A DNA stretch of 64,000 nt from Escherichia phage vB_EcoP_PE006. The notes under the pieces are model-generated. The model was given only the letters and a program-made list of their open reading frames with translations. It did no database searches and was not told the origin of the DNA. The stretch lies in the sequence record OQ938541.1; one strand, given 5' to 3'. This document shows, piece after piece, positions 3,781 through 41,521 of this stretch. Made by a program: the position numbers and the translations under genes. Each line of letters begins with the position of its first letter. Position 1 is the first letter of the stretch.

Positions 3781-3789
3781 TAATGTATA
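3781..3789 (+). promoter_or_regulatory. TAATGTATA promoter-like element
   Basis: Exact TAATGTATA 34 nt upstream of the ATG at 3823, just downstream of the terminator. Confidence 0.45.
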
Positions 3790-3822
3790 TTCTTTGTCTA
3801 CATATAACAAGGAGGACAACCT

Positions 3823-4575
3823 ATGGCGATGCCTGAAGTGCAAAACCCGATTAACACGTATGGCTGGCTTAAGAAAGCTGTTGCCTTGTGGGCCGATCGA
3901 GACGATGATGAATTTGTTAATCAAATTCCAAACTTTATTAACTTTGCAGAGAAAGAGATTTATCGTAACTTACGTATCCCTCCTCTGGAAAAAGAAGTGT
4001 ATTTAGATATTAAAGATGGAGTAGCTTACATTCCTCCTGATTACTTAGAAGCTCAGTGGATGATGAGAGCCAAAGATGGTACAATCTTCCAAGTAACATC
4101 TCCTGAAGAGATTAGCTATCGTAGACAGCATGGAACAATTAACCCATCTCACTGGAATAACCAACCTGTTAACTTTGCTCGTTTCGGTAGTCGTTTCATT
4201 TTCTACCCTAGTATTGAAGCAGATACTCCTGTTTATCCTGATGATGGAAGTCCTTTGATTCCAGCAGAAAACTCAGTCATTCTTAGCTATTATGCAGACC
4301 CACCGGAGTTCCATGAAGATACAGATACCAGCGCTATTCTTACTATTGCACCAGAACTTCTTCTGTATTTCACTCTACGTCATGCTTGCTTGTTTGTTCA
4401 AGATGATAACGGAGTTCAGAAATGGTCTGCATTAGGAAAAGCTATCCTTGATGAAATGGTAGAGCAGAATAAGAAACAAGAGTACTCAGGTTCACCTATC
4501 GCAATTCCGAATAACATGACTCGACTTCAGAGCAGCTTGCCTGACATTTATGGTATTCGTACTTCTCGTGTATAA
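3823..4575 (+). CDS. hypothetical virion protein
   Basis: 250-aa ORF with AAGGAGG SD, first gene after the capsid terminator and promoter element. Confidence 0.5.
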   Translation: MAMPEVQNPINTYGWLKKAVALWADRDDDEFVNQIPNFINFAEKEIYRNLRIPPLEKEVYLDIKDGVAYIPPDYLEAQWMMRAKDGTIFQVTSPEEISYRRQHGTINPSHWNNQPVNFARFGSRFIFYPSIEADTPVYPDDGSPLIPAENSVILSYYADPPEFHEDTDTSAILTIAPELLLYFTLRHACLFVQDDNGVQKWSALGKAILDEMVEQNKKQEYSGSPIAIPNNMTRLQSSLPDIYGIRTSRV

Positions 4576-4584
4576 GGAGATAAT

Positions 4585-7405: not shown

Positions 7406-9526
7406 ATGTCTAGAGAACTAATGCCTAAATCTGGCATAATGATGCCTCATGTAGTTGTAACCAGAGATGCGGCTGTTGTCGGTGTTTCTACTGTAGATGG
7501 ACAGGCTGGTGCTGTTGACCTTACTGGAAAGTATTTACAGAAAACCGATGCGGCTGCTACATACCAAACTAAAGCAGAAGGTGCATCTAAAGATTTTGTA
7601 CTGGATTCAATTCAACCTATTATGTCTGGTGCTTTATTCAGAGCAGACCCTTGGGTTGTTAACGACACCCCATTCCGATCTACTGGAGCTAACGGTGTAG
7701 AATCAGTTGATATGATGAAAGTAACCCCTGATAACTCAATCAAGATTGGTAGTTATGCCTCTTCAGTTCAAGGTGTAGAGATTCATTCTGCTGGTCGTCT
7801 TCAGGTTGTTGACCAGAATGATTCTGGGGTAGAAACTAAGTATCCGGTTTATTCTAAACGTTATCGTCCTGAGATTGAGGATTTGCCTTTTGCTGCAATT
7901 GGTTCTTATGTTAAAGATTCTAAGGGTCGTACTGTTGGGGTTACTCGTACAGGGATTAACTCTGATATCAAACAACTTACCCAGAAGGTAACTTTCACTC
8001 AACCAGTTACCGTTCCTGATGCAGTTGGGGATTATGATGCAGTTACTTTGAGACAGCTTCGTAATAGTGGTGGCGGTTCTGGTGGTCCTACAATGAGTGG
8101 TATATCTAACTTCGGTATTGGTGATTTCCACTTACGTGACAGTCGAGCTTTTATTCCAGCTTTTGAAGTAGTGTCTGACGGACAGCTTTTGAACCGTGCT
8201 GACTATCCAGACCTTTGGGCATACGCTCAATTGCTGTCTCCTATTGAAGACTCTCTGTGGTTGTCTGATAAATTTCAACGTGGCAGATACTCAAAAGGTG
8301 ATGGTTCTACTACATTTCGTGTTCCGGATAGGAATGGTGTTCAGGAAGGGTCTATTCGGGCTTTATATGGTAGAGGTGATGGTGGCTCTTCTACTACTAA
8401 TGGAGCTATCTTTGATTCAGCTGCCCCTAACATAACAGGCGGTTTTGAAATCGTAACAAACACTACCGTACTTGAGAATGCTGATCTTGAAGGGGCAATA
8501 TTTGGTGCGCGGAAAGGGTACAAATATGCCCAATTGAATACTATTGAACTTCCTTCTTCCGGTGATATATATCCCAAACAGATGCGGATTGACGCGTCAC
8601 GTTCAAGCCCTATCTACGGGGCGTCCTATGACGAGATTATGGGTCGTAACTTTGTAGGTGTTTGGACTATTCGTGCTCATGGTGGATTCACAGCAGCTAA
8701 CACTTCTTGGTCTGTTATTAACAGCGATGCAGATAAACCTAGCAGCGGAACTTCTGTAAGTGGTGGGTCAATTCTCTCCGAGTATAAAATAGGAACTGAA
8801 GTTGAAGGTTATGCGTCTTTTAGGATGGTGGGAACTATCGGTGCTACTTATGCTGCTCGTGTAACCGTTTTTAATAAGTCTTCAGGAGCCAACGAAACCT
8901 TCGATTTTGGAAGTGATGGAAACTTAAACATTCCGGGAAGTTTGCGTACTAACGAAGGTGACGTCATCGCTAAGAGTCAACTGATATCTCAAGGAGGTCG
9001 GATAGTTCTTATAGGTAATAGTAATCAAAGCCAATCTTTTGTTGAATTTAAGAGCAACAATGGTTATACTGTGAATTCAAGAGTTTATTCTGAGCGTGAT
9101 GGCGAACTCACCATATCAACATCTACAGCTGGAGCTAATCAGAAATATTTTCAATTTCTTAAGGATGGTAGTGCTACAAGCTCTGGTGGCTGGATCCACT
9201 CTTCTGATATGAGAATTAAAGAGAATATTAAACCAATAGAAAACCCTCTGGAAAAGATGAAAAACATCAAAGGTGTTTCTTGGAAGCTTAGAAACGGGGG
9301 TAAGATTGGTTTTGGTTTCATAGCTCAAGATGTTGAAGTAGACTTCCCTGATGCGGTATCTATTTCTGGTGATATGGAGATGGAAGATGGGTCTGTAGTT
9401 AAGGGTGTAAGATCGGTTGATACTTATGGTGTTTCCGCCGCTTTACACCACGAAGCTATTCTTGAACTTATGAAACAGATCGAAGACCTTAAGAAAGAGA
9501 TAGCAGAACTTAAATCTGGTAAATAA
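7406..9526 (+). CDS. tail fibre/tailspike with C-terminal intramolecular chaperone (peptidase S74-like) domain
   Basis: C-terminus SDMRIKENIKPIENP...GKIGFGFIAQDVEVDFPDAV matches the SDxRxK ... GFIAQ auto-cleaving chaperone signature. Confidence 0.8.
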   Translation: MSRELMPKSGIMMPHVVVTRDAAVVGVSTVDGQAGAVDLTGKYLQKTDAAATYQTKAEGASKDFVLDSIQPIMSGALFRADPWVVNDTPFRSTGANGVESVDMMKVTPDNSIKIGSYASSVQGVEIHSAGRLQVVDQNDSGVETKYPVYSKRYRPEIEDLPFAAIGSYVKDSKGRTVGVTRTGINSDIKQLTQKVTFTQPVTVPDAVGDYDAVTLRQLRNSGGGSGGPTMSGISNFGIGDFHLRDSRAFIPAFEVVSDGQLLNRADYPDLWAYAQLLSPIEDSLWLSDKFQRGRYSKGDGSTTFRVPDRNGVQEGSIRALYGRGDGGSSTTNGAIFDSAAPNITGGFEIVTNTTVLENADLEGAIFGARKGYKYAQLNTIELPSSGDIYPKQMRIDASRSSPIYGASYDEIMGRNFVGVWTIRAHGGFTAANTSWSVINSDADKPSSGTSVSGGSILSEYKIGTEVEGYASFRMVGTIGATYAARVTVFNKSSGANETFDFGSDGNLNIPGSLRTNEGDVIAKSQLISQGGRIVLIGNSNQSQSFVEFKSNNGYTVNSRVYSERDGELTISTSTAGANQKYFQFLKDGSATSSGGWIHSSDMRIKENIKPIENPLEKMKNIKGVSWKLRNGGKIGFGFIAQDVEVDFPDAVSISGDMEMEDGSVVKGVRSVDTYGVSAALHHEAILELMKQIEDLKKEIAELKSGK

Positions 9527-19108: not shown

Positions 19109-20788
19109 ATGCAACAGACAACTTACGCTCAGGTCAGAAGTCGTGACCCGAGAAATACTTTCTATGGTGTTAATCCGGGAGCGGCTTCGGCCTCTCCTTA
19201 TATGGCTAGACCTACTCAGACAGCGGATGTTTCTATGTACCAGCGTCCTGCTGTACCTTCATCTCTCGCAGGTCTTGTCTCTCAGGCAGAAGAAGATCAG
19301 AATGCTATGGTGAATCCGGGATTCCAGCAACGTCTTATGGAACAACAGAATCAAGGAACCCCAACAAGTCTTCAGGGTATTGACATTGGAGCACCAGCCC
19401 CTGTAGCAGCTAATCCTAATTTATCTACTGATCAAGGTTTGCAGGATGCTGGACTTATGCCTAGTGACCCTCTTCCGGTGACACCTCCTGCCAAGCCACT
19501 AGAAACTGGTCCTATGGAGTTTACTCCTTCTCAGGTTGAACAAGCACAAGGTGTTGTTAATACTCTTGCTCAAGGACAAGACACTGGTGACGGAATGGCT
19601 GCTGCTACTCGTACTAAAGATCAAGAGCGTGTTAACAATGATATCTTGCAAGTTGCAAAAGCTAAAGATCCTTCAGAAGCTTGGAAGAAGTTACAGAAAG
19701 AACCTTTCTATCAGAACTCTAGTTTCTATACAGGTTTAATGGGTGTAGGTCTTTCTATCATGTCAGGTAAATCTCCTATCGAAGCATTCCAGATTGGTCA
19801 GGGGATGGCTAATCAAGATGAGACTAAAAAGCAACTGGAAGCTAACCGTGATGCTCTGATTGAACAAGGTTTCTCTCAAGACTCAATTGCAGCTGCTATT
19901 GCTCAGGGTGATCCATCTCTTCTGAAGATGAAAGCTAAAGACCCTCTTCAACAGGAAGATCTGTATGCTGCTCGTGAAGAACGTCAGAATGCTGAGTGGG
20001 ATAGACGTCAAGCTATCAATGAAGAATCTGCTGAGAGAAACCGTAAGGCTACTTTGGAAAATCAGTTAGCTCTGGCGGAAGCGCGTGGTGAGATTACTCG
20101 CGACAACCTTTTGTTCAAGAAGGATCACAATGTTCGTAGAACATCTCCTAAGTGGGAAAAATCAGAGGAGCTTGGTGGTATTACCCCTAACTTACGAGAT
20201 AAGTTACAGCAATCTTATCGTCCTGTTATTAATGTCCTAGCTTCTCGAAACAAGTGGATGGCTCCTACAGAAGCTGCTATTTCTAAATTAGGAACTGGTG
20301 CAAACTCTCAAGAGAACTCAGCTCAGCAACGTGCTGCTATTGAGAACTTGACTAAACTTATTCAGGGTGGTTTAGCTTCTATTAACGGAGAAGTTATGAA
20401 TGAGCTTACAGGTGATCCAGATTGGGTTAACAACAAGTTGAACAAGATTCAGATGATGGCAGGTCAAGGCCCAACCGAAGCAAATATCAAGTGGCTTAAA
20501 GCACTCGGTACAGAGATTCAAGAGATTGATAAAGAGGCAACTAAATACCAAGTAGCCCCTCTAGTAGAATCTTTGATTCTTGACAGCGGTTTGGCTCCTG
20601 AAAATGCTATTAGAGCTGCTAACTCTATTTTTGCTCCTGGCTCTGTTCGACTCACTACTGAAGAGTTTAAAGAATGGTCTCGTGGACACAGTAAAGTTCA
20701 TGATAAAACATTCCCTGATGACAAGCCTCCTAAATTGAAGGGTGGTGCTTTATCCGATTCTTCAGATACTAGCTGGTTCACTCAATAA
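19109..20788 (+). CDS. hypothetical virion protein
   Basis: 559-aa ORF with TTAGGAG SD in the structural operon. Confidence 0.5.
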   Translation: MQQTTYAQVRSRDPRNTFYGVNPGAASASPYMARPTQTADVSMYQRPAVPSSLAGLVSQAEEDQNAMVNPGFQQRLMEQQNQGTPTSLQGIDIGAPAPVAANPNLSTDQGLQDAGLMPSDPLPVTPPAKPLETGPMEFTPSQVEQAQGVVNTLAQGQDTGDGMAAATRTKDQERVNNDILQVAKAKDPSEAWKKLQKEPFYQNSSFYTGLMGVGLSIMSGKSPIEAFQIGQGMANQDETKKQLEANRDALIEQGFSQDSIAAAIAQGDPSLLKMKAKDPLQQEDLYAAREERQNAEWDRRQAINEESAERNRKATLENQLALAEARGEITRDNLLFKKDHNVRRTSPKWEKSEELGGITPNLRDKLQQSYRPVINVLASRNKWMAPTEAAISKLGTGANSQENSAQQRAAIENLTKLIQGGLASINGEVMNELTGDPDWVNNKLNKIQMMAGQGPTEANIKWLKALGTEIQEIDKEATKYQVAPLVESLILDSGLAPENAIRAANSIFAPGSVRLTTEEFKEWSRGHSKVHDKTFPDDKPPKLKGGALSDSSDTSWFTQ

Positions 20789-20808
20789 GACCTAAGTCCT
20801 GCCTTCTA

Positions 20809-20817
20809 TAATGTATA
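20809..20817 (+). promoter_or_regulatory. TAATGTATA promoter-like element
   Basis: Exact TAATGTATA 39 nt upstream of the ATG at 20856. Confidence 0.45.
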
Positions 20818-20855
20818 TAGGGGGTAGGACATTTTTATTTATAAAAGGAGACGTT

Positions 20856-25878: not shown

Positions 25879-26272
25879 TTCCTTTTTTGAATTGTTTTCT
25901 TGCATCATTTTCCATCTTTGTTTTAATCTTATGACAAGGGTCTTTACACAGAACCTGAAAACCTTCTTTTTCACATAGAGCACGAGAGATGATTTCATCC
26001 CAAGTTGCTTCATGGTCAAGAGGGACTATAGGCTCTATGTGGTCAATAGCCATATCCTTTACAGGGTGGTCAGAACCACACATGGCACACTTAAAGTGCA
26101 TTGCCAGTCTTCCTGTCTTTGGATTAATTTTCTGCTCTGTCTTGGCGTCTGCTAGTGCATCGAACATAGGCTTCCACTTTCTAGTCAGAGAACGAATCCC
26201 TGACTTGATGAAAGAATTGTAACGAGCTTCAGTCCACATTCCAGAGCATCTAGTCTTCTCAGCCTTCGCCAT
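25871..26272 (-). CDS. HNH endonuclease
   Basis: FKCAMCGSDHPVKDMAIDHIEPI ... CKDPCHKIKT: Cys pairs flanking an H-N-H core. Confidence 0.6.
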   Translation of the reverse strand: MAKAEKTRCSGMWTEARYNSFIKSGIRSLTRKWKPMFDALADAKTEQKINPKTGRLAMHFKCAMCGSDHPVKDMAIDHIEPIVPLDHEATWDEIISRALCEKEGFQVLCKDPCHKIKTKMENDARKQFKKGNE

Positions 26273-26460: not shown

Positions 26461-27282
26461 TTATTCCCAAGTTTTTTCGAGCCACGACCAATCAAATAGG
26501 TCTTCCGGAGTCTGACCAACAAAGAGCAGCCGAGCATTCTCAAGCATCTTCTCTTCATCTTCAGTATCGAACTTCTTATAATATTCCATTCGTACTATAT
26601 GATACATGGTCCACTTGTCTGTAACACCAGCCAATAACTTAGCTGCTGCTTTCTTCCCTATTCCTTGACGTCGAAGCTGAAGCTTACCGCCCCACATAAC
26701 TTCTTTACGTTCTCCACATCCGGGGATATTATCTGTACCATCTCCAACCAACATCTGATAGAAGAAGTTTTGCCATGAAACTAAATCAGATACATAGTGA
26801 GGAGGGACTTCTTTCTGTCTTTCTCCACAAGCCCAACGGTAGTGCCATCCGGGAGTTATCAACAAATCCTTGTCTCTAGTACAGATGATAGTGTTCTTAT
26901 CCCTACGTTGCCTTTCAGCTAGTGCATCATCAGCCTCTCTCCCAAATACATCTATATATTCATACTTACCTTTAATGTAATCACCAACGTTCTGCCAGTG
27001 AAAAGGTCTTTCTCCGGGAGGTCTGTTTGCTTTGTAGTCTTGCTGCTTAGCAACATCAAAACGGAAGTTACCGCCTTCGCTGAAGTAGAACACAACCTTA
27101 CTGCAACCTGAGCGAGCAATGATAGTATCTATCTTGTACTGAAGTCGTTCAATCATGAAATTGTAATCAACTGGAACACGTCCTGTGTCAAGAAAGGGAT
27201 GCTCCTGAGTAAGAGCACCCACTTCATATCGAAGAACGTCAGCATCCACTATAGCTACTTCAGGGAGCTTAACGTCTTCCAT
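26461..27282 (-). CDS. 5'-3' exonuclease / flap endonuclease (FEN family)
   Basis: LVGDGTDNIPGCGERKEVMWGGKLQLRRQGIGKKAAAKLL matches the GD.SDNIPG ... KTA.KLL helix-hairpin-helix signature. Confidence 0.75.
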   Translation of the reverse strand: MEDVKLPEVAIVDADVLRYEVGALTQEHPFLDTGRVPVDYNFMIERLQYKIDTIIARSGCSKVVFYFSEGGNFRFDVAKQQDYKANRPPGERPFHWQNVGDYIKGKYEYIDVFGREADDALAERQRRDKNTIICTRDKDLLITPGWHYRWACGERQKEVPPHYVSDLVSWQNFFYQMLVGDGTDNIPGCGERKEVMWGGKLQLRRQGIGKKAAAKLLAGVTDKWTMYHIVRMEYYKKFDTEDEEKMLENARLLFVGQTPEDLFDWSWLEKTWE

Positions 27283-27283
27283 A

Positions 27284-27807
27284 TTATTCTCCTAACAGCT
27301 TACGAATTTCACTACGGAAATTATTATACTCTTCAGGGTATTCAAACCCACATTCGAGAAGAGCGTAGTGAACAACCTTCAACAAATCCTGAGACTTATT
27401 CTTATCTTTATGTCGATAAGCGTATTTGATCATATTGGTTTGTTGGAAGTTCAACTGAGGGTTTGCATGGTAGAACTCAATAGGTTGAATCATCTTATTA
27501 TTGGGATTGTAGTGAGAGCCTCCCACCATAGATTCTAATGCTGGATTGCCTTGAGATGCCATTTCTAATTGCTCTGTGTGGTCATGTGAATAGTCTACTG
27601 GAGAGGTTTTGTTACCGGTAATTTTAGGCAAAATCGCTCTAGTTGTTTCTATGTATTTACCGCCATCAACATTAATTTGAAACTCTACAAGCTCATTCTG
27701 TAACTCATATCCTGATATGTTTGATAGCATGTCCAACTCATCCCTGAGAAAATTTAAAAGTTTGCTTTTAATTGCAAGAGCTTTCTTTAAATCTGTCATC
27801 TCTTCAC

Positions 27808-27817
<10 letters not shown>
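27284..27817 (-). CDS. hypothetical protein (DUF3310-like C-terminus, tentative)
   Basis: GGSHYNP...IQPIEF...NMIKYAYR resembles a phage domain of unknown function, recalled from memory. Confidence 0.4.
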
Positions 27818-29101
<1,284 letters not shown>

Positions 29102-29348
29102 AATGCATCTCTTTATAAATGGTTTCCGTGTTCTTCTTCCAGCTAGATAAACCGGTAAGAACTCTCTGGGCAACTTCATCAGCTGCCTTGCTTCTTTCAA
29201 TCTCTAATTCTTGCTGGTGCTTCTCTTTGTCCAGATTACTACTGTCTGTTTGATATTCGTTAAACTTCATACCACCAAAGAATACAAGAGCTGAGAAAAC
29301 GATAAACCCTAAGTTATCACTTAACGTGTTTTGCATGTTGTCTCCAAC

Positions 29349-29372
29349 GAAAAAAGCCACCCGAAGGTGGCT
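29349..29372 (-). terminator. rho-independent terminator after SSB gene
   Basis: - strand AGCCACC-UUCG-GGUGGCU followed by UUUUU. Confidence 0.55.
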
Positions 29373-29393
29373 AAGCTATAACAAGGAGAGTTA

Positions 29394-30140
29394 TCAGAAT
29401 GGGCTGTCGTTGTCATCTTCATAAGTAGAAGCAGGCTCTTTATCAATCGTAGGGATTGAAGGAGTAGCTTCTTTCTGCTCTGTTTCAGAAGCACGAGTAA
29501 TTTCACGACCAGCCAGAGGCATGTTCTTAGCGTCGTTAGCTTGAGTAAGCAGGTTGCGCTGGAACGGGAACATCAGTTGATAGGATGCTACGTTCTCATC
29601 GGTTTCAGCATACGGTTCGAAGAATACCAGAGGACTACGAGCTTCACCAACTGCTGCACGATATTTGGTTGGGATTGGAGAAATGGTTTTGATGGAGTTT
29701 TTAACTTCACCAGCTTTATTAGTGTAAGAGTTAACCAGAATGTTGACAGGCTGACCTAACAGTACATCCTTAAACCAAGACAGATCACCTTTCAGTGCTT
29801 GAATGCTTGGGTCAATCATCTTGCAGAGATCAAGGATACCAGAGTTCTTAGCTCGTGGGTTTACATCATAGCTCTTGAACTGGCAAGCAGGACGTGGTTC
29901 TAATGCCTTACCATCGGAATCTTTACCAGTAGCATCAACACCAATCAGCTCGAAAGCCAAATCCATACGGAAAGCTGGATTCTTAGGAGTTACTGCTTTG
30001 GTCTTCGGGTCAATCCAAGGGTCACGATTGTGAACACCCAAACCTACTACACGAACAATACGTGCTTCGTACTCACCATCAGGGATGATGTCGTAGTTGG
30101 ATTTACGGGAAGAGGTTGCGATAGTTGGAATCATAGACAT
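29394..30140 (-). CDS. ssb: single-stranded DNA-binding protein
   Basis: 248 aa ending in acidic tail ...TYEDDNDSPF (D-rich with terminal F, as in SSB C-termini). Confidence 0.65.
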   Translation of the reverse strand: MSMIPTIATSSRKSNYDIIPDGEYEARIVRVVGLGVHNRDPWIDPKTKAVTPKNPAFRMDLAFELIGVDATGKDSDGKALEPRPACQFKSYDVNPRAKNSGILDLCKMIDPSIQALKGDLSWFKDVLLGQPVNILVNSYTNKAGEVKNSIKTISPIPTKYRAAVGEARSPLVFFEPYAETDENVASYQLMFPFQRNLLTQANDAKNMPLAGREITRASETEQKEATPSIPTIDKEPASTYEDDNDSPF

Positions 30141-30199
30141 ATTTTAATTTCCTTATTTAATTTGAAAGATTGTTGCTCTCTTTGAGCGGTTATGTATAG

Positions 30200-30208
30200 T
30201 ATACATTA
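30200..30208 (-). promoter_or_regulatory. TAATGTATA promoter-like element (- strand) upstream of ssb
   Basis: Reverse complement of tatacatta at 30200-30208, ~60 nt upstream of the ssb start. Confidence 0.4.
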
Positions 30209-30271
30209 CGCTTATACCGATAAGAGTACTATGTAATATAAGTATCTTTGGTAGTAGATATAACACACTAG

Positions 30272-30280
30272 TAATGTATA
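30272..30280 (+). promoter_or_regulatory. TAATGTATA element on the opposite strand (antisense/divergent)
   Basis: Exact TAATGTATA on + strand in a region with only - strand genes. Confidence 0.3.
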
Positions 30281-30369
30281 TATTGTATAGCTGATAAAGT
30301 TATTGCAGGCTTGTATATTGGGCAATTCACAGAATCCCTTGCAAGTACCGAAGGGCAGGAGCCACCTGC

Positions 30370-30441
30370 GAGATAAAAATAGAGAATTAAGGAATCCTTG
30401 ATTTAGGTTGTAGGGACTCCTAGGGACTTTGATTCTCTATT
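30370..30441 (-). terminator. long inverted repeat, terminator-like on - strand
   Basis: AATAGAGAAT (30378-30387) / ATTCTCTATT (30432-30441) 10-bp stem enclosing 44 nt; U-rich run follows on the - strand. Confidence 0.4.
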
Positions 30442-30534
30442 TAAAAGAATATTAATTACTTACTTAAAACCAATTCAAAAAGAGAATAGCTAAAAGAACT
30501 ATTCCTAGTAAAGCTAAGAAGTAAATGATATAAG

Positions 30535-30762
30535 TTACCATTCAAGTAAACCTTTAAAGTTAGACTGTTCTACTATCCTCTGATAACGAAGATTAGAATC
30601 AGCTTGTTTCTTTAACATCTCATTATATTGGTCTCTGATAGAGTCTTTATAAACTACAGGTTCTTTAAATAATGAGATCTTCTTTTCTTCAGAGTTAGAT
30701 AGTACATCCGTCACAAATGAAATCCCCACTAAGTGATTCTTGTAACAAGCGACTCTGTTCAT
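30535..30762 (-). CDS. hypothetical protein
   Basis: 75-aa ORF; overlaps the next ORF in another frame. Confidence 0.3.
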   Translation of the reverse strand: MNRVACYKNHLVGISFVTDVLSNSEEKKISLFKEPVVYKDSIRDQYNEMLKKQADSNLRYQRIVEQSNFKGLLEW

Positions 30763-30889
30763 CAGAGACTAATTGATTCACCACTTTCTGTAGTTCTAAT
30801 AAATCATCAAAATCGATCATCATGCCTTCATCAAGCTTATCAGTATCAACAGACCAAAAAGGATTATCTCCTAGTATTTTACTAATCAT
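30695..30889 (-). CDS. hypothetical acidic protein
   Basis: 64-aa ORF, D/E-rich. Confidence 0.3.
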   Translation of the reverse strand: MISKILGDNPFWSVDTDKLDEGMMIDFDDLLELQKVVNQLVSDEQSRLLQESLSGDFICDGCTI

Positions 30890-31109
30890 TCTACATCCCC
30901 TCTCACTTCAGCGTCTTTTGAATCTTCACTTGAGTATTTATCAATATATTCCATTTTTACCCCTATTAATTATGACCAAGATTTAGCTTTTACTTCAACA
31001 TATGTTTTAACTTCACCTTTCAAGACCTCCTGAGAAGCATTTGCACTTTCTTCAGAGTGGTGTACAACGGTGATCTCTTTCTTTCCAATCTTATAAGTGT
31101 GAATCCAAA

Positions 31110-31310
31110 TCATTCCTCTTCCTCATATTCCCAATTTCTTTCATAATATCCAGAGTTGTAGTTTAGGGTGCATTTCTCAGCCTCTTCTATGTCATCGGTG
31201 TTTAGGATATTAACCCATCCTCCAGCCTCATCAAAACCTTCTTCTTCCTCATTAATCCATACACTATATTTCTTCATCGAGAAGTTCTCCCCCAATCTTT
31301 TACATAGCAT
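31110..31310 (-). CDS. small highly acidic protein
   Basis: ...WINEEEEGFDEAGGWVNILNTDDIEEAEK...ERNWEYEEEE. Confidence 0.35.
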   Translation of the reverse strand: MLCKRLGENFSMKKYSVWINEEEEGFDEAGGWVNILNTDDIEEAEKCTLNYNSGYYERNWEYEEEE

Positions 31311-31446
31311 CGACCGTTAACCCACTTTGTCTCTGACTTAAATTCCTGAGACATTCGTACTTCACAGTCTTCTCTACTGGCATCCCCTCCGATATCAATC
31401 AGATACAGGAATAGAGCTATACCTAAAGTCCAAAGGATTATCTTCT

Positions 31447-31845
31447 TCATCGAATCACCAGAGGCTCTTCAGAGTACACAGGAGCGGCTATTTCTACAGG
31501 AGGTGCTGCCCTAAGGTCATTAAGTCTTACACCCTTCAGCATCCCGTCTAGGTGATCTTTCTTAGGGATTCCAACAGGGAAGTCGTCAATCCAAATATCT
31601 ACAAAGAAACCTAGCTGACGACATACATCATCCTTCTGAACACCATTGCAAAAGATGATAGGAATCTGCAAACACTCTGCATCAATCTTAATGTCGTGAT
31701 TATCGTACCCATTAGGCTCTGCAAAGCGATAAGTTACAAAACGTACATCATAACCTTTGGCTTGCATTAATGCCACCACAGAGCGCCACAGCTTCTTATC
31801 TGAGGTGTAAGTATCATCGTAATCTAAACCAATATTCATATCCAA
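31447..31845 (-). CDS. small HAD-superfamily phosphatase-like protein
   Basis: IGLDYDDTYT (DxDxT motif I) and C-terminal WIDDFP (DD motif). Confidence 0.45.
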   Translation of the reverse strand: MDMNIGLDYDDTYTSDKKLWRSVVALMQAKGYDVRFVTYRFAEPNGYDNHDIKIDAECLQIPIIFCNGVQKDDVCRQLGFFVDIWIDDFPVGIPKKDHLDGMLKGVRLNDLRAAPPVEIAAPVYSEEPLVIR

Positions 31846-32072
31846 ATCCTTTAGACAAGAAAAGCCGCCCTAAGGCAGCTCTTTATTTAGTCGGTCACTT
31901 TAGCTTCAAGTGCTTCATTTTCGATACTCAAGTCAATCACTACACCAGTAAGCTCAACAACTGCTTGGCGAAGGGCATCTTTACCCATAGAGTGTACTTG
32001 AGTTAGGAAGAAAGCTTTACCTTCTTCGGTGGACAGGGTTTCTTTTAATTCAGAAGCAGTCATTGATATTCC

Positions 32073-32267
32073 TTATGTTATGTTATAAATTCGCATGATT
32101 GTACCGCCATTGGCTTCAATAGCAGCAACCATTTGGTTTCGTTCTTCATCCGTATAAACTAACACACTTCTAAATTCACCTGTTGCGTCAGTGTAAAGGA
32201 TGTTATACTTCGGAGGTGGCTTACGGTAGATACCTTCCATCACTCTTTCTCCTCTCGTTCTTTCCAC
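32073..32267 (-). CDS. hypothetical protein
   Basis: 64-aa ORF downstream of the polymerase. Confidence 0.35.
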   Translation of the reverse strand: MERTRGERVMEGIYRKPPPKYNILYTDATGEFRSVLVYTDEERNQMVAAIEANGGTIMRIYNIT

Positions 32268-32436
32268 AGTTCAGCGAGTTCTAAATAAAACTCAGCTTCA
32301 TCAGGACGTCCTTGTTCATTACAGATGGCGCTCTGACGATAACACCAATCCGATGGCATCTCTTCCACTTCAATCTCCTTATTATGAACTAATCAATAAG
32401 ACTAGTTCATTTGTTTTCTAAACTTTCAGTCCTGAA

Positions 32437-32589
32437 TCAATGTGTGTGCATCCAATTCAATCCAATCTGACAATCAGATGCCAGAGGACATTCCATGTTC
32501 AAGTACTCACCAGCTTTCTTAACACAAAGCTCGGTATGTTCTTTGAGTTTATGTACATCATTACGGTTCACTGAGAATTGGCCCTCATC
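32437..32589 (-). CDS. DNA polymerase exon 2 (C-terminal 50 aa)
   Basis: No start codon; translation DEGQFSVNRNDV...CQIGLNWMHTH ends like family-A polymerases (G.NW..H); joins exon 1 to form the HDE motif. Confidence 0.7.
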   Translation of the reverse strand, partial: DEGQFSVNRNDVHKLKEHTELCVKKAGEYLNMECPLASDCQIGLNWMHTH

Positions 32590-33196
32590 CATTTATGTTA
32601 TTCCCAAATTACTTCGGGTATCGGACTATATCATAACAGCATAGCTAATTTGCTGTTGTTGGCGCTTCGAGGGTTTCCCTGTTAACCCCCTACTCCCGCA
32701 GGATAGTCTCTACACTTTCCACTTTCGAATCCATCTACAAGCGATTCCAAAGCTCACACCAAATCTTTCTGCAAGAGCAACACCAGTACATTCATTATTA
32801 AGCCAGAACTCTTTAGCAGCATCCTGTCTTTCTCTGTTTCTACCAGTATTTGATTCTATGGCATGTGCACTACCTTCTAATATCTCTAGATGATCAGTGT
32901 TACAACATGCCCTATTCTTGCATTTGTGATTAACTTCGTAGCCGTCAGGAATACTTCCAAACTTCTCTTCCATGACATACCTATGATACATGACCCATTT
33001 GCCATTTATCACTTTTCGAAAGTAGCCATCTTTATTTAATTTGTGTGAGATAGGGATGATACATCCTGTGCTAGTTGTTTCTAGCACTAGATCTTTCTTA
33101 GCCATATCACCTCCTAATAGCTTAGCTCGGTATTGCCCTCAACTTAATGGTCGGGTTTCACCGAGTTCACCAACTTTTACATGCACAATGAAGTTT
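32590..33196 (-). mobile_element. group I intron in the DNA polymerase gene
   Basis: Exon ends ...AUGCAU with U at the splice site; intron nt 11-16 GUGCAU can pair with it (P1, U-G wobble); AGACUA (32704-32709) and GAUAUAGUCC (32623-32632) match P7 strands; terminal G before exon 2. Confidence 0.7.
32710..33105 (-). CDS. intron-encoded HNH homing endonuclease
   Basis: Own SD (AGGAGG); YEVNHKCKNRACCNTDHLE HNH core; lies inside the intron. Confidence 0.75.
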   Translation of the reverse strand: MAKKDLVLETTSTGCIIPISHKLNKDGYFRKVINGKWVMYHRYVMEEKFGSIPDGYEVNHKCKNRACCNTDHLEILEGSAHAIESNTGRNRERQDAAKEFWLNNECTGVALAERFGVSFGIACRWIRKWKV

Positions 33197-34888
33197 ATGC
33201 ATATCAATTACCTTAGCACAGCGAACCCCATCTTTCTCAATCCACTTGTTAAGGAACATCATAGCATATTTCATAACAACAGCACCAGCACATTGCAGGA
33301 GAGTGTTAAGTGCTTTATGAACCATAACTTTACCAGTGGCATCTCGTCTCATTGTAATCTTACGACCATCAACACCAATCAAGTACCCTTGAGCAGCTTT
33401 CTCTGTCATACGATCAATGAGGATTGCAATACATGGGTTCTCTGCCAAGAAACGTGCTCGCATCACTGAACCTTCGTCAGCCCCACCACCTACAATTGAA
33501 CCGAGCTTGGCATCACCAGCACCATAGTTGAATGCGTAGATAAATGTCTTAGCGTTGTCACGAGTAGGAAGACCAGCAAGTTTCTGGTTGTGGGAGTGGA
33601 TATCACCTTCAAGGAGAATATCACGATACATAATAGCAGAAGCTAAACCACGCTCTGCCAGAGCTTTCTTAGCTGGATTATTCTCTTCGATTGCTTCAGC
33701 AAGCATATCCCTACACTCTTTAATGAGGTAGTGTGCAAGCATACGCAATTCTAATCCAGAACCATCATACCCTAAGAATACTTCTTTACCAGCGGGTATG
33801 TAATATTTGTAAGCACCTACAGGTTTGTCTTTCTTCCCCGGCTTACCTTTCTCATAAATTACGTTAGTACCTTTTCGTATATAACAACCATCAGGAACAA
33901 CGTTAGTAATAACGAAAGGACGAGAGTGATCATCATCTGAGTTATAGTCAGATTCAAACAAACTGCGACACTCGTGACCAAACAAACCACGGGAGGGAAT
34001 ATTAACCACGATACGATGTTTGAATCGAAAAGTCGGCGTAGCGCAGCTGTTAGCTTCTGCCGAAAGTTTACCATCTTCGCGTTCCTTTGCTATGAGTCCA
34101 CTAATAAGACCTAGCCTGTGAGCCGCTACAACGCGTCTCTTAAGCAAACTTCCGACACTCCCTAGCTCACCCCCTAACCCTTCTTCAAGAGTCTCCTCGA
34201 GGTTTGTAGGAGCTGTAGGCCACTTGTTTGAGGTAGCTAGTGCTATCTTAATCTCATCAAAAGTGATAGGTCTACGTCGGTTAGGATTTAAACCTAAACC
34301 AAATACATAAGCCTTCATATAGTTCTTAGTCTTAAACCTAAAATGCTTCTCTAAGAACTTCCTAATATCAGCGTCAACCATCTCGGCTGTCTGCTTCTGT
34401 TTAGCATTACCTCGCATCCAAGCTGAATACCATGCTTGGTATGTTCCATACTTTCGCATATCTTTCTTGATTTCAAAAGTATTCCAAGGCTTCTTAGATA
34501 CGTTAAACTCTGGAGGAAGAAAGCCCTCATCCATAAGGGCTTCTTTAACTCGTGCATCTTTCGATGGGTCAAAGTCCACGTATTCAACACAGGTGAATGC
34601 TCCACCAATGTCTTCTCTCTTAAGACCAACTCTATCACAATAGGCTTGAGGCCACTTCTGTAAAGCTCCAGACTTCTTAAATGGCTTCATATAAGTAGAG
34701 CCATCTAATCTCATCTTAGGTAAGAGAGGAATCAGTTCTTTGTCAATATTAACAATAATCTCTTTAAGGAGGTGAACATACCACCGAGCATTTCTTCGGT
34801 TGAAACTCACTCCGTGCTTCGCTTGCTTAGAGATTATATCAGCGACAGTCATCTCTGTCAAAAATGGGAGAGCGTCCGGGTTGCTCAC
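33197..34888 (-). CDS. family-A DNA polymerase, exon 1 (polymerase domain only)
   Basis: GTG start with AAAGGAG SD; motif A LGYDGSGLELRMLAH; motif B RDNAKTFIYAFNYGAG; no 3'-5' exo motifs at the N-terminus. Confidence 0.85.
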
Positions 34889-36028: not shown

Positions 36029-36096
36029 ATTTATTACCTAAGAAGTTTAATTTGGTTTATATAAAAGAAAAGGCCACCCATTTGGGTAGCCTCATG

Positions 36097-36420
36097 TTAC
36101 GTTGAGCTTAAAGCTCCTTTTCGCTTAGCAGCACCAGCTGCTTTTCCAGCTCGATCACCACTTTTGCCGCCGTTTGAACGGTTTGAGCTGACTGATTCAA
36201 CACGTAAGTTGCTTGACGCATTAGAGCCTCCAGACTTGACAGCTCGTTTGTGTCCAACATCTTTACCTCTGACAGCAGCTTTTCCATCGCGCTTTTCAAC
36301 GATGCGACGTGCACGGTGGCGCTGAGCATCTCCGCTCTTGCTCCCAACGCCTGTTTCACCACGGGCAATTGCGGTACGTCTTTCTTGTGCATAATCTCTC
36401 TTTCCTACATGGTCTGCCAT
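36097..36420 (-). CDS. small basic low-complexity protein
   Basis: K/R/G/A/S-rich 107 aa; strong AAGGAG SD; codons match the genome preference (GCT/CGT/GGT/GAA/AAA); TAATGTATA element 37 nt upstream. Confidence 0.5.
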   Translation of the reverse strand: MADHVGKRDYAQERRTAIARGETGVGSKSGDAQRHRARRIVEKRDGKAAVRGKDVGHKRAVKSGGSNASSNLRVESVSSNRSNGGKSGDRAGKAAGAAKRKGALSST

Positions 36421-36456: not shown

Positions 36457-36465
36457 TATACATTA
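36457..36465 (-). promoter_or_regulatory. TAATGTATA promoter-like element (- strand)
   Basis: Reverse complement of tatacatta at 36457-36465, 37 nt upstream of the ATG at 36420. Confidence 0.45.
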
Positions 36466-36474
36466 TGGATGCTA

Positions 36475-36723
36475 TTAAAACTCTGCTAAGTATTTAATAT
36501 CAGAGGCATATACCTCATCAAAGGAAATAGGCTCTCCGTTGTAAAGAAGTTCTATCTTCAATATACCAGAGCATTTGGTGTCTTTAGAATCAACTCTGAT
36601 AGAGAGTTTATCAACTATCTGAGCTTTAATCTCTTCTATTACCAACTCTTGAGTGTTATTCACTCCACCCTCCCGGTGGCACAAAATCATCAGGAACGTC
36701 AATGATAGTAGGTTCTCCATCAT
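36475..36723 (-). CDS. hypothetical protein
   Basis: 82-aa ORF. Confidence 0.3.
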   Translation of the reverse strand: MMENLLSLTFLMILCHREGGVNNTQELVIEEIKAQIVDKLSIRVDSKDTKCSGILKIELLYNGEPISFDEVYASDIKYLAEF

Positions 36724-39467: not shown

Positions 39468-39482
39468 CCGTGAATTTCCTTA

Positions 39483-39692
39483 TTAATATTCTTTTACATA
39501 ACAAACCACTAAGGTTCCCATTTCTGACAGTGTTGATTTATGTAAGCTTACTTTACTATAAATCTTTGGGGCCATCTTAAGAGCCTTCTTAAAACGGCGA
39601 GCATCTTTACGAGTAGCAAAGTGCTCTGTAACAGGTATAGCCGGGTCTTGGTAGAGGTAATATACCACCGTCCAATATTTTTTCATAATCAA
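39483..39692 (-). CDS. small protein, member of a 4-copy paralog family
   Basis: ...TRKDARRFKK...SLHK...VCYVKEY aligns with the three tandem genes at 41546-42161. Confidence 0.4.
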   Translation of the reverse strand: MIMKKYWTVVYYLYQDPAIPVTEHFATRKDARRFKKALKMAPKIYSKVSLHKSTLSEMGTLVVCYVKEY

Positions 39693-39961
39693 ACACCTAG
39701 GGCAGTAGTTAAGAATGCTTTCAGGTTTGCTTCGGTCTGCATACCAGAGAGGCTGTAGTGTGTACCGCTGTTACGGTCAGGTACAACGAAAGCAGGGATG
39801 CTACGAACCCCGTACTTAACAGCTTGTTCACGACCATCACCCTCAAGGATGTTAATCTCTTCCACTTCTACATCAAACTCCTTAACAACCTTCTCAAAGG
39901 TAGGAGCCATTGCTTTACATGGAGCACACTGATCACTATAAAACTTAATTACTTTAGACAT
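39689..39961 (-). CDS. thioredoxin-like protein (CAPC active site)
   Basis: MSKVIKFYSDQCAPCKAM ... RSIPAFVV (cis-Pro); start at internal ATG 39961 with AAGGAA SD. Confidence 0.7.
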   Translation of the reverse strand: MSKVIKFYSDQCAPCKAMAPTFEKVVKEFDVEVEEINILEGDGREQAVKYGVRSIPAFVVPDRNSGTHYSLSGMQTEANLKAFLTTALGV

Positions 39962-39962
39962 T

Positions 39963-40139
39963 CTATTCCTTGTTAATAAACAGGTTGATATGACGTTGGG
40001 TAGCAGGAACAACAATAAAAGATTTATACTGACCTTTTGCTAAGTCATGAGCAATCTTCTTTGTCTGACCAAGACCCATCACACAGCCACTAACAATAAT
40101 GGCGTGTGCTTGCAACTCTTCAGGGAGTTTTAGTTTCAT
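39963..40139 (-). CDS. hypothetical small protein
   Basis: 58-aa ORF MKLKLPEELQAHAIIVSGCVMGLGQ... between the membrane paralogs and thioredoxin. Confidence 0.25.
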   Translation of the reverse strand: MKLKLPEELQAHAIIVSGCVMGLGQTKKIAHDLAKGQYKSFIVVPATQRHINLFINKE

Positions 40140-40151
40140 TCTTCAGGTTCC

Positions 40152-40337
40152 TTACAGCATAGCAAGAATGATAATAAGAGGTAATGTTATAGCGAAATTA
40201 ATAAGAACAGCGCTGCCTAGCTTGATAGCTTTAACATCCTCTTCTGATGGGTTTTCTTTAATTGCTAAATTTCGAGCTTTATATATAACAGTACCAATTA
40301 TTAACGACCACACGGCCCACACAATCAGTGAAATCAT
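40152..40337 (-). CDS. small two-TM membrane protein (paralog 1)
   Basis: MISLIVWAVWSLIIGTVIY ... ITLPLIIILAML. Confidence 0.4.
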   Translation of the reverse strand: MISLIVWAVWSLIIGTVIYKARNLAIKENPSEEDVKAIKLGSAVLINFAITLPLIIILAML

Positions 40338-40346
40338 ATCAAACCC

Positions 40347-40526
40347 TTATGCAGTCAGGAGGTGAAGCAGGAATGGGATAACAACAGCTACGACAACCAT
40401 GATGGTTGATGCTGTTTGAATCTCACCTTTCTTGTCAGGAGTTTCTTCAATAAGCTTGCCAGAAGCCCAATAGATACCACCACCAATAAAGACAGCCCAA
40501 ATACCCCATACGATTGCTGATAACAT
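40347..40526 (-). CDS. small two-TM membrane protein (paralog 2)
   Basis: MLSAIVWGIWAVFIGGGIYWASGKLIEE...VVVAVVIPFLLHLL, similar to the adjacent gene. Confidence 0.35.
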   Translation of the reverse strand: MLSAIVWGIWAVFIGGGIYWASGKLIEETPDKKGEIQTASTIMVVVAVVIPFLLHLLTA

Positions 40527-40587
40527 ATATCTATATCCTTATAAATAAGTTCGCCCCACCTCGGGTTAGGAGACAGGGCGGAGGTTT

Positions 40588-41187
40588 TTAGTAAGACACA
40601 TCGCCACTTGAGTGGGACATGTTGCTCTTGACGAAGTAGCAATACTTGCCAAGACCTTCATTAATTTCTTGAAGCATACTCTGATCAACTGGATAAGTGG
40701 CTAAATCACCATCAAACTCATCCATCTTCTCAATAATACACATCAAGGTCATGCACATATCAGAGAGCATACCGTCCATATCTAGGTCAGCATTACCCTC
40801 TGAGAACCAAGCATGGGAGAGATAATTGGCTGCTGTAGCGTCCACTTTAACACAGTGGTAACGCATACGTTCAGCAATACGATCTCCTACTTGTCGTGCG
40901 TAATCTTCCAGCTCATCAAACATACCATGAACACCCTGAAATCCTGCACCAGAGACGTTCCAGTGGTAGTTTTTAGCTTTAATATGCAAGAGTTCCATGT
41001 TAGCTTGTAAGCAGCTCAGGATGTGTTCTAGGCTGTTTCCACTAATCATACCCTGCATTGTTTCAAGGCGAGAGATTGAAAGCTCAGATCGGTCTAACAT
41101 ATTGTATTCGACACGACCAATATCAGGTAAATCAAAGACATTCTTATGCATTTGGGTTATCTCCATCAAGTTCAACTGAATTAGCAA
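40588..41187 (-). CDS. Dps/ferritin-like protein
   Basis: NYHWNVSGAGFQGVHGMFDELEDYARQVGDRIAERM matches the Dps HW.V.G..F..H..F.E.....D.IAER signature. Confidence 0.6.
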   Translation of the reverse strand: MLIQLNLMEITQMHKNVFDLPDIGRVEYNMLDRSELSISRLETMQGMISGNSLEHILSCLQANMELLHIKAKNYHWNVSGAGFQGVHGMFDELEDYARQVGDRIAERMRYHCVKVDATAANYLSHAWFSEGNADLDMDGMLSDMCMTLMCIIEKMDEFDGDLATYPVDQSMLQEINEGLGKYCYFVKSNMSHSSGDVSY

Positions 41188-41473
41188 CGTTACGTTCGAT
41201 GTTTGCCATCACTTGCTGCGTTATGACAATACAGTTCTGTGGGTCTACTGACTTAGAACGCCCCATTTCAGGGTCATACACCTTAACTCGCTTAGCAGTT
41301 GAACCTGTAACCTGAAGAACCTTCAACAAATATCCCTGATTACCAATAGACCAAGCAACAACATCACGATTCTTGATAAAGCGACCAAGCATATCACGAT
41401 GATAAAACTGTTGCATCACCTTGGATTTTGTAATCTCTTCAGTGGGCGGGGCCACTTTACTCAAATCTAACAT
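41144..41473 (-). CDS. hypothetical protein
   Basis: 109-aa ORF; AATGTATA-like element ~40 nt upstream. Confidence 0.4.
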   Translation of the reverse strand: MLDLSKVAPPTEEITKSKVMQQFYHRDMLGRFIKNRDVVAWSIGNQGYLLKVLQVTGSTAKRVKVYDPEMGRSKSVDPQNCIVITQQVMANIERNVANSVELDGDNPNA

Positions 41474-41512
41474 AACTCTCTCCTGTAAAATACAAATTCT
41501 TATTGTACTCTA

Positions 41513-41521
41513 TATACATTT
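41513..41521 (-). promoter_or_regulatory. AAATGTATA promoter-like variant (- strand)
   Basis: Reverse complement of tatacattt, ~40 nt upstream of the ATG at 41473. Confidence 0.3.

Follow-up and report, generated by a model that had tools for sequence, protein, structure and literature searches.

Recurrent copies of a gp36-type -10 element very probably mark the middle and late promoters of a phiEco32-like coliphage and include a conserved orphan copy

In the 64,000-nt stretch of Escherichia phage vB_EcoP_PE006 (sequence record OQ938541.1) analyzed here, referred to below as the window, the recurrent elements TAATGTATA and AAATGTATA can be considered, with a probability of about 0.93, the -10 regions of the middle promoters P40, P58, and P68 and of the late promoters P13 and P26, read by the RNA polymerase core together with the phage sigma factor gp36. 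The promoter class itself is already known, having been published between 2012 and 2025. The phage is a member of the genus Kuravirus, a phiEco32-like coliphage showing about 94–96% identity with phiEco32, 172-1, and NJ01; the likeness to phiEco32-type phages, with whose promoters a first-pass annotation of the sequence had compared the element, is borne out by these values.

The consensus established experimentally for promoters of the phiEco32 gp36 holoenzyme is given as tAATGTAtA, and six such promoters are listed as preceding genes 6, 13, 26, 40, 58, and 68 (PMC4331800, PMC4281155, PMC8948821, PMC12276001); the primary phiEco32 promoter data of 2012 are used here as conveyed by these four papers. 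In the published table TAATGTATA is found at P13, P26, P40, and P58, aAATGTATA at P68, and TAATGTAgA at P6, and the motif is present at the expected positions in all phages of the phiEco32 subgroup (PMC8948821). Transcription in phiEco32 is described in the same paper as starting 6–8 bp past the element (PMC8948821). The five gene-facing sites of the window map one-to-one onto P13, P26, P40, P58, and P68, including the aAATGTATA variant at P68 (Table 1); among the orthologous sites in phiEco32 are 9101-9109 (P13), 26014-26022 (P26), 42937-42945 (P58), and 46862-46870 (P68). The sixth published promoter, P6, falls beyond the left end of the window. P40 is present in all 18 of the 18 genomes compared, with the A at -34 invariant. 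This one-to-one orthology, with gp36 99.5% and gp79 100% identical to their phiEco32 counterparts, supports the earlier proposal that the elements are middle and late promoters used by the phage sigma. For the window phage, the start sites, the dependence on gp36, and the timing are supported by analogy, being carried over from the phiEco32 literature.

Table 1. Promoter elements, genes, and predicted transcript features in the window
Feature	Position	Strand	Remarks
Terminator-like hairpin then T-run	3728-3749	+	just upstream of P13
P13 -35 box TAAGACCTA	3758-3766	+	-38 to -30; has T at -38, A at -34
P13 late promoter, -10 element TAATGTATA	3781-3789	+	-15 to -7; predicted start ~3796
Gene 13, virion structural protein (PHROG match)	3823-4575	+	driven by P13, with later late genes
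P26 -35 box TAAGACCTA	20786-20794	+	same box and register as P13
15-bp inverted repeat then ATTTTTATTT, terminator-like	20796-20830	+	loop holds P26 -10 element
P26 late promoter, -10 element TAATGTATA	20809-20817	+	predicted start ~20824
Gene 26	20856-25436	+	driven by P26; ATG at 20856
gp36 orthologue gene, phage sigma factor, 214 aa	28197-28841	-	99.5% identical to phiEco32 gp36 (K28R only)
Gene 40, SSB-like acidic tail	29394-30140	-	driven by P40; strong terminator 29355-29372 at end
P40 middle promoter, -10 element TAATGTATA	30200-30208	-	predicted start ~30193
Pdiv -35 box TGGTAGTA	30249-30256	+	-38 to -31; 8-nt conserved core of TTGGTAGTAGATAT
Pdiv, orphan copy TAATGTATA (extended TAATGTATATA)	30272-30280	+	faces no gene; predicted start ~30287
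Predicted Pdiv transcript	30287-30445	+	~160 nt, non-coding, conserved
5' hairpin of predicted Pdiv transcript	30288-30302	+	covaries
Central domain of predicted Pdiv transcript	30303-30371	+	closed by TTGCAGG/CCTGCGA; alternative inserts in relatives
Long terminal hairpin of predicted Pdiv transcript	30377-30442	+	doubles as minus-strand terminator upstream of P40
Gene 58	36097-36420	-	driven by P58; terminator 36070-36093 follows
P58 middle promoter, -10 element TAATGTATA	36457-36465	-	predicted start ~36450
Gene 68	41144-41473	-	driven by P68, with downstream middle genes
P68 middle promoter, -10 element AAATGTATA	41513-41521	-	predicted start ~41506
P68 -35 region TTGGTAGTAGATAT	41531-41544 (-38 to -25); 41545-41532 = -39 to -26	-	contains -37G, -34A
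gp79 orthologue gene, 82 aa	47486-47734	-	100% identical to phiEco32 gp79

The first-pass annotation had placed all the copies correctly, with regard to both position and strand: five are exact TAATGTATA, and AAATGTATA lies at 41513-41521 on the minus strand. In the comparison with shuffled sequence that it had proposed, the five exact copies of TAATGTATA in the window stand against 0.79 ± 0.91 expected, and at least five were reached in 0 of 100 shuffles. The 8-mer AATGTATA occurs seven times in the window against 2.76 expected, a number likewise reached in 0 of 100 shuffles; the copy that remains apart from the sites in Table 1, at 63213-63220 on the minus strand, lies within an ORF and is without the upstream T at -38. 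One-mismatch variants of TAATGTATA occur in the window at chance level (17 against 19.6 expected), which means that only near-perfect copies of the motif matter. In phiEco32, with the curated annotation (8.9% intergenic) taken as the gene model, seven of the eight matches to [TA]AATGTA[TG]A lie between genes (binomial P ~5e-8); equal frequency in coding regions, raised beforehand as a finding that would count against promoters, is not what is seen.

Each gene-facing copy is co-oriented with its downstream gene, and the gap between motif and start codon amounts to 33 nt for gene 13, 38 nt for gene 26, 59 nt for gene 40, 36 nt for gene 58, and 39 nt for gene 68. The distances reported earlier (34–40 nt, about 60 nt for ssb) thus hold to within one base (33–59 nt), but the distance is similar and not, as had been claimed, fixed. 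The accompanying remark that the elements often stand just after a terminator is true of P13 and P26 and loosely of P40, but not of P58 and P68. The T at -38 and the A at -34 are common to six of the six window sites and phiEco32 P6, and among these sites only P68, Pdiv, and P6 carry a G at -37. The box TAAGACCTA (-38 to -30), shared by P13 and P26, was considered as a -35 signature of the late class and rejected, as TGGGAG stands in its place in P6 of phiEco32, which is also a late promoter. It is also worth mentioning that the gene 40 protein has an acidic C-terminal tail ending in ...EDDNDSPF, in keeping with the name ssb given to it before, but has no match in Pfam, PHROG-function, or PDB that would justify this name.

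The sigma gene noticed earlier at 28197-28841 does exist, on the minus strand. Its product matches chain F of PDB 9m7y with E = 2.6e-145 and retains all of the residues E79, H80, Y83, R84, W90, S91, S94, N95, Y186, and R187, published as DNA contacts. It is only a distant member of the sigma-70 family, scoring 19.1 bits against Pfam Sigma70_r2, under the cut-off of 24, and having no region 4 match in Pfam. Its description as an ECF-like factor was right insofar as a phage sigma gene is concerned, but is imprecise given the sub-threshold Sigma70_r2 score and promoters unlike those of ECF factors. In phiEco32, P26 is transcribed in vitro by the gp36 holoenzyme with a 4-fold stimulation by gp79, which acts on both P26 and P68 in vitro and, while inhibiting the sigma-70 holoenzyme, co-activates gp36-dependent transcription (PMC12276001). 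P68 is the promoter present in the cryo-EM open complex; there, structure and mutagenesis define the contacts, and the C-terminal domain of gp36 contacts -37G and -34A (PMC12276001). By transfer to the window phage, the host RNA polymerase core with gp36 would recognize TAATGTATA and AAATGTATA as -10 elements, the gp36 N-terminal domain reading -14A, -13A, -12T, and -11G of AATGTA, with DNA opening from -11, and the C-terminal domain touching the -35 region at the A at -34, plus the G at -37 where present. Transcription would start about 7 nt past the 9-mer. The gp79 protein would displace region 4 of the host sigma-70, turning off host and early phage transcription, and would also stabilize the gp36 C-terminal domain, thereby boosting the middle and late promoters.

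It is very improbable that the elements are instead host sigma-70 promoters of the extended -10-like type, TGTATA(T). Two weak sigma-70-like pairs, each with 9/12 matches, overlap P58 (TTAGCA-16-CATAAT) and Pdiv (TAGATA-18-TATATT), and the authors of the SU10 study considered that the sigma-70 holoenzyme may also read middle genes (PMC4281155). However, no pair of the TTGACA-17-TATAAT type was found at P13, P26, P40, or P68, sigma-70-like matches show no enrichment, numbering 28 in the window against 37–40 expected, and it is the gp36 holoenzyme that transcribes these promoters in phiEco32, gp79 inhibiting sigma-70 and stimulating P26 and P68 (PMC12276001, PMC8948821). The G at -11, which is read by gp36 E79 and H80, also argues against reading by sigma-70 (PMC12276001). 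Scarcely credible is the view that the repeats arose by chance in AT-rich intergenic DNA or serve outside transcription, as sites of a phage DNA-binding protein or as terminator-associated repeats, even though one-mismatch variants are found at chance frequency, several copies lie beside or inside hairpins or terminators, and the P40 motif constitutes one half of a palindrome at 30190-30208. Against it stand the excess of exact copies (5 vs 0.79) and their intergenic placement (7/8), the orientation of the gene-facing copies with their genes at 33–59 nt before the start codon, the common register of the T at -38 and the A at -34, and the exact correspondence to experimentally mapped promoters (PMC8948821).

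Compared with phiEco32, another Kuravirus isolate, the window phage shows no difference of substance: the promoters have the same 9-mers (TAATGTATA four times and aAATGTATA at P68) in the same orthologous positions and orientation, the sigma differs by one substitution, gp79 is identical, and the P68 contacts -37G and -34A are the same. ECF sigmas resemble gp36 in having two domains, and database records as well as PDB 9m7y label gp36 an 'ECF sigma factor'. Promoters of the group 4 (ECF) sigmas typically carry GGAAC at -35 and CGTC at -10, sequences unrelated to the window motif. The late promoters of T4 have TATAAATA at -10, read by gp55, a factor that lacks any sigma-4-like domain and depends on gp33 together with the sliding clamp. 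T4 and the window phage have in common a short A/T-rich -10-type element, a divergent phage sigma, and an accessory protein that disables region 4 of the host sigma and promotes the phage programme; unlike T4 gp55, gp36 contacts the -35 region with its C-terminal domain, stabilized by gp79 (PMC12276001). The T4 appropriation of sigma by AsiA/MotA is discussed in the same work (PMC12276001). Yet another system, that of the Salmonella phage 7-11, has late promoters read by the sigma gp47 with the consensus GTAAtg-(16)-aCTA (PMC8948821). As in the window phage, a phage sigma redirects the host core, and the promoters lie at similar positions in a related genome layout, but the consensus is bipartite, the sigma is ~15% identical to gp36, and there is neither a gp79 homologue nor a middle class (PMC8948821). 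In the 7-11-like loci L008-L010 no AATGTA pair and no Pdiv were found upstream of the gp40 homologue; the sequence GGTACT-N16-TAATGGATA present there was considered as a P40 in the phiEco32 register, but the same DNA also fits the 7-11 consensus GTAAtg-16-aCTA, and no claim is made either way.

Conservation and folding suggest that the orphan copy, Pdiv, is probably a seventh gp36 promoter, which would give rise to a small RNA or to a transcript that primes replication. Put forward more tentatively, as having somewhat less than an even chance of being correct, is the full proposal that Pdiv is an unreported gp36-dependent promoter, conserved in Kuravirus and Suseptimavirus, that fires against the middle/early gene cluster and yields either a structured ncRNA of ~160 nt (30287-~30445) or a replication-priming transcript. 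Pdiv is directed against over 30 kb of minus-strand genes, and shares with P68 the same 14-nt TTGGTAGTAGATAT in the -35 region, at the same spacing. It is also found in phiEco32, at 36704-36712, between genes 40 and 41, and is intact in 23 of 24 related loci. In a footprint test over the 24 loci only 2 of the 19 columns in the boxes vary, against 37 of the 41 outside (p ~2e-9), and Pdiv is kept in relatives with ~120 bp inserted between it and P40; in one natural variant, L028, the G at -11 is changed to A. Pdiv is not among the six promoters of the published phiEco32 lists as these are given in citing papers. One published promoter search covered only the gene-sense strand of intergenic regions, and Pdiv would therefore have been missed. 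Literature searches retrieved no Kuravirus transcriptome, ncRNA, or replication origin.

The plus strand of the Pdiv element is predicted to fold with -45.8 kcal/mol, compared with -35.3 kcal/mol for the minus strand. Covariation in the 5' hairpin amounts to two base pairs within a nearly invariant element. The stretch of ~90 nt from Pdiv to the terminal hairpin, located beyond the minus-strand terminator, is ~94% conserved and structured. The terminator on the plus strand is weak, consisting of a stem followed by UUUAAAAG, and the T-run of the terminal hairpin is better on the minus strand. This hairpin also contains direct repeats, TAGGGACT-cc-TAGGGACT (30411-30428), which vary together among relatives. 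Rfam 15 gave no match at gathering score in the window, and at 30100-30700, searched to E <= 10, only chance-level matches with E > 3; in the region of the predicted transcript ARAGORN found no tRNA or tmRNA. Complementarity to window mRNAs was at chance, with three antisense 11-mers against 2.3 expected, and in IMG/VR and metagenomes the RNA core was found only in close phiEco32-like contigs, with no deeper phylogenetic reach. The possibility that the DNA downstream of Pdiv encodes a small protein was considered and rejected: the only ORFs begin with TTG, specify 21-32 aa, and lie in a segment swapped for an alternative module in relatives. The lambda oop RNA is a short non-coding transcript, and the T7 phi1.1A/B promoters prime replication. 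By analogy, Pdiv may likewise be a promoter that opposes, or has no relation to, the orientation of the local genes and produces a short transcript, although there is no sequence relationship with either system.

Two other explanations concern the orphan copy only. That Pdiv is a functional gp36 promoter acting at the level of DNA, by priming or activating a replication origin, would fit its facing no gene and opposing more than 30 kb of minus-strand genes, its position beside gene 40, whose product has an SSB-like acidic tail, the concerted variation of the TAGGGACT direct repeats at 30411-30428, and the AT-rich DNA after the hairpin. The primary origin of T7 offers an analogy, with phage promoters followed by an AT-rich stretch. 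This explanation is nevertheless quite unlikely: the literature search found no mapped origin in this phage group, the GC skew tracks gene orientation only, the repeats are inside a hairpin and explicable by pairing, and the G.U pairs together with the asymmetry of 10 kcal/mol between the strands favor selection on an RNA fold. Unlikely as well is that Pdiv is a relic of duplication, a regulatory or upstream element of P40, or a sigma decoy, the downstream sequence being merely the minus-strand terminator and the 3' UTR of the gene 41-57 operon. The 14-nt -35 box common to P68 and Pdiv suggests duplication, and the better T-run of the terminal hairpin on the minus strand, the G to A change at -11 in one natural genome, and the listing of only six promoters by published searches (PMC8948821) point the same way. 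However, both Pdiv boxes are nearly invariant within a spacer and flanks saturated with changes, Pdiv survives a change of ~120 bp in its distance to P40, and the ~90 nt beyond the minus-strand terminator are still ~94% conserved and structured, while a search restricted to the gene-sense strand would have overlooked this promoter.

The value of the main finding lies in annotation, as transfer from phiEco32 makes it possible to delimit middle and late transcription units in the window phage with confidence. It also means that a real phage promoter class was recoverable from raw sequence at a first reading. The research value rests in the orphan promoter Pdiv only. Were the proposal true, the phiEco32 sigma regulon would have in the Pdiv RNA its first non-coding product. 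An active Pdiv would provide the gp36/gp79 system with a non-coding output that has so far gone unrecognized and is conserved across about 100 sequenced coliphages employed in work on phage therapy.

The recurrent motif represents a promoter class that is already known, and the window is a new isolate from a phage genus that has been studied well. In the published work, gp36 of phiEco32 is described as a distant sigma-70-family protein that forms a holoenzyme with the host core polymerase, and its promoters are placed upstream of genes 6, 13, 26, 40, 58 and 68, with a single consensus, tAATGTAtA, and starts 6-8 bp downstream (PMC8948821; PMC4331800; PMC4281155). A supplementary table (PMC8948821) gives P6 as TAATGTAgA, P13, P26, P40 and P58 as TAATGTATA, and P68 as aAATGTATA, classifies P6, P13 and P26 as late and P40, P58 and P68 as middle, and tabulates equivalents for NJ01, ECBP2, KBNP1711, SU10 and 172-1. 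The five gene-facing sites of the window correspond to P13, P26, P40, P58 and P68, and the P68 counterpart carries the same A-for-T change; the position of P6 falls outside the window, to its left. Pieces of 6 kb (27000-33000) and 24 kb (20000-44000) matched about 100 Escherichia/Shigella phage records of Kuravirus and relatives, with 94% identity to phiEco32; for phages 172-1 and NJ01 the figure is 96%. Its gene order is that of phiEco32, with + strand structural genes up to ~25.4 kb and then - strand middle/early genes, and its position 1 corresponds roughly to phiEco32 position 5325. ARAGORN found no tRNA genes in the whole window; phiEco32 has a tRNA-Arg at 66354-66427, a region expected within it.

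Features associated with the predicted gp36-read promoters of the window
Feature	Position	Strand	Remark
Terminator-like hairpin	3728-3749		directly upstream of P13
P13	3781-3789	+	33 nt to gene 13
15-bp terminator-like inverted repeat, then ATTTTTATTT	20796-20830	+	P26 -10 element in its loop
P26	20809-20817	+	38 nt to gene 26
gp36 gene	28197-28841	-	sigma factor
P40	30200-30208	-	59 nt to gene 40
Pdiv	30272-30280	+	faces no gene
5' hairpin of Pdiv element	30288-30302
Central domain of Pdiv element			closed by TTGCAGG/CCTGCGA; one of two alternative inserts, depending on the phage
Long terminal hairpin of Pdiv element	30377-30442		T-run after it on the - strand
P58	36457-36465	-	36 nt to gene 58
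P68	41513-41521	-	39 nt to gene 68; AAATGTATA
gp79 gene	47486-47734	-	identical to phiEco32 gp79

Exact TAATGTATA occurs five times in the window against 0.79 +/- 0.91 expected from dinucleotide-preserving shuffles of it, none of which reached five, and the 8-mer AATGTATA seven times against 2.76; the leftover 8-mer (63213-63220, - strand) lies inside an ORF. One-mismatch variants of TAATGTATA are at chance level (17 vs 19.6), that of P68 being the only one in a promoter-like context. In phiEco32, under its curated annotation, seven of eight matches to [TA]AATGTA[TG]A are intergenic in a genome that is 8.9% intergenic (P ~5e-8). The recurrent motif reported by the first-pass annotation is confirmed, an exact search having returned its five TAATGTATA coordinates; the distances to start codons, put there at 34-40 nt (about 60 nt for gene 40), were measured as 33-39 nt and 59 nt, with that of gene 26 counted from the sequence to an ATG at 20856, a start confirmed by a full-length PHROG match.

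The same annotation had ascribed these promoters to a phage sigma factor encoded in the window, which proved to be the gp36 orthologue (PDB 9m7y chain F, E = 2.6e-145); the ascription is supported by the match to the published promoters, the near-identical gp36 and the identical gp79, its co-activator. In the 2025 cryo-EM structure of core polymerase, gp36 and gp79 on P68, AATGTA occupies -14 to -9. There, N95, S91, S94 and E79/H80 of gp36 read -14A, -13A, -12T and -11G, the fork junction is stacked on by W90 and Y83, and the C-terminal domain touches -37G and -34A through R187 and Y186; gp79 displaces sigma-70 region 4, stabilises this domain, and gives a four-fold stimulation of P26 and a three-fold one of P68 (PMC12276001). 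Since the window gp36 differs from that of phiEco32 by K28R only and keeps all listed DNA-contact residues, and gp79 is unchanged, the published specificity should, judging from the proteins, transfer unchanged.

With the 9-mer set at -15 to -7, T at -38 and A at -34 are found at all six window sites and at phiEco32 P6 (pattern T-R-R-N-A-S, -38 to -33); both bases accompany 3 of the 32 other AATGTA hexamers of the window, which is chance level. At P40, A at -34 is the only invariant base of the -35 region across 18 genomes, which fits the structural contact. In the subgroup with a ~120-bp insertion between P40 and Pdiv, the divergent orphan copy (L014 (ES17), L021 (EcK-vB), L003/L025, which are the same IMG/VR contig, and L028-L032), P40 gains a GGTAGT-type -35 box resembling those of P68 and Pdiv. 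The same 9-nt box, TAAGACCTA, is present in P13 and P26 at -38 to -30 (3758-3766 and 20786-20794, +) and may stem from a duplicated promoter or be an upstream element specific to a subclass; as a late-class signature it was rejected because P6 of phiEco32 lacks it.

The proposal that the promoters often follow a terminator holds for P13 and for P26; at P26 the terminator that closes the gene 13-25 operon overlaps the late promoter following it, whose -10 element lies in the loop. No terminator was found ahead of P58 or P68. The P40 motif makes up one arm of an almost perfect palindrome, TTATGTATA-G-TATACATTA (30190-30208), covering its -10 region and predicted start. Gene 40 (29394-30140, -) forms a single-gene unit from P40 to a strong terminator (29355-29372), and gene 58 similarly lies between P58 and a terminator (36070-36093). 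The product gp40, for which no family or structure match was found, has an acidic C-terminal tail (...YEDDNDSPF) like those of T7 gp2.5-type and bacterial SSBs. It is also worth recording a perfect sigma-70 consensus with extended -10 (34833-34861, -; TTGACA, a 17-nt spacer ending in TGA, TATAAT; 12/12 plus TG) within the DNA polymerase ORF (33167-34888), very close to its 5' end, with an identical counterpart in phiEco32 at 41350 and an estimated chance expectation of ~0.02 per window.

Pdiv, correctly noted as facing no gene, has a phiEco32 counterpart at 36704-36712. It is missing from two published lists of the six promoters (PMC4331800; PMC8948821 supplementary table); one of the published searches covered the gene-sense strand of intergenic regions only. 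It has the -35 region of P68, TTGGTAGTAGATAT, with unchanged spacing, and both P40 and Pdiv are present in 18/18 Kuravirus/Suseptimavirus genomes, including three with ~120 bp inserted between them. In a Pdiv-anchored alignment TGGTAGTA (-38 to -31) and TAATGTATATA (-15 to -5) are invariant, and the spacer and upstream flank vary; when six metagenomic loci, retrieved with a pattern that was taken from the downstream element and did not involve the promoter, are added (24 loci, 17 distinct sequences), 2 of 19 columns vary within the boxes vs 37 of 41 elsewhere (Fisher p = 2e-9). Pdiv is conserved in 23 of these 24 loci; the metagenome contig ERZ1034915 NODE-75 (L028, 8935-8945) carries G to A at -11, TAATATATA, the architecture being intact in all other respects; either a sequencing error or a naturally occurring loss-of-function allele may account for this. 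The site is absent from 7-11-like loci. Pdiv probably functions as a seventh promoter for gp36 (a probability of roughly 0.7).

A transcript starting at the predicted position, ~30287, would run ~175 nt through non-coding DNA before the first - strand gene, and would most likely be a discrete small RNA. Conservation of the stretch is ~94% over 11 distinct type-A sequences. It contains a structured element of ~160 nt (to 30445; 30249-30445, +, with the promoter), which folds at -45.8 kcal/mol on the + strand (z = -2.4) vs -35.3 for the complement (z = -1.5). Alternatively, Pdiv may be a non-transcribing relic or regulatory element. The 5' hairpin has compensatory changes, a U-A pair being replaced by G-C and a C-G pair by U-A or A-U, and G.U pairs that are workable in the + strand only. 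Pairing there holds in 98% of cells vs 86% in shuffles, with a covariation score of 0.435 vs 0.18 (0/500 shuffles reached either value) and 26-52% pairing in slid registers; this evidence comes from a helix that is small and in which two pairs covary, the remainder of the element being nearly invariant.

Antisense read-through is another alternative. On the - strand, the T-run after the long hairpin implies that this hairpin terminates the upstream operon. This hairpin includes a direct repeat, TAGGGACT-cc-TAGGGACT (30411-30428, +), of which Paul, AnnaHegner, XT32 and ECBP2 have lost one G from both copies together. Pdiv may alternatively yield an origin-priming transcript. The literature searched contained no Kuravirus transcriptome or origin mapping. 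The predicted transcript had no Rfam match, neither a tRNA nor a conserved small ORF was found in it, and its complementarity to other window mRNAs is not above chance. Pdiv together with its conserved structured downstream element can be considered a modest new lead.
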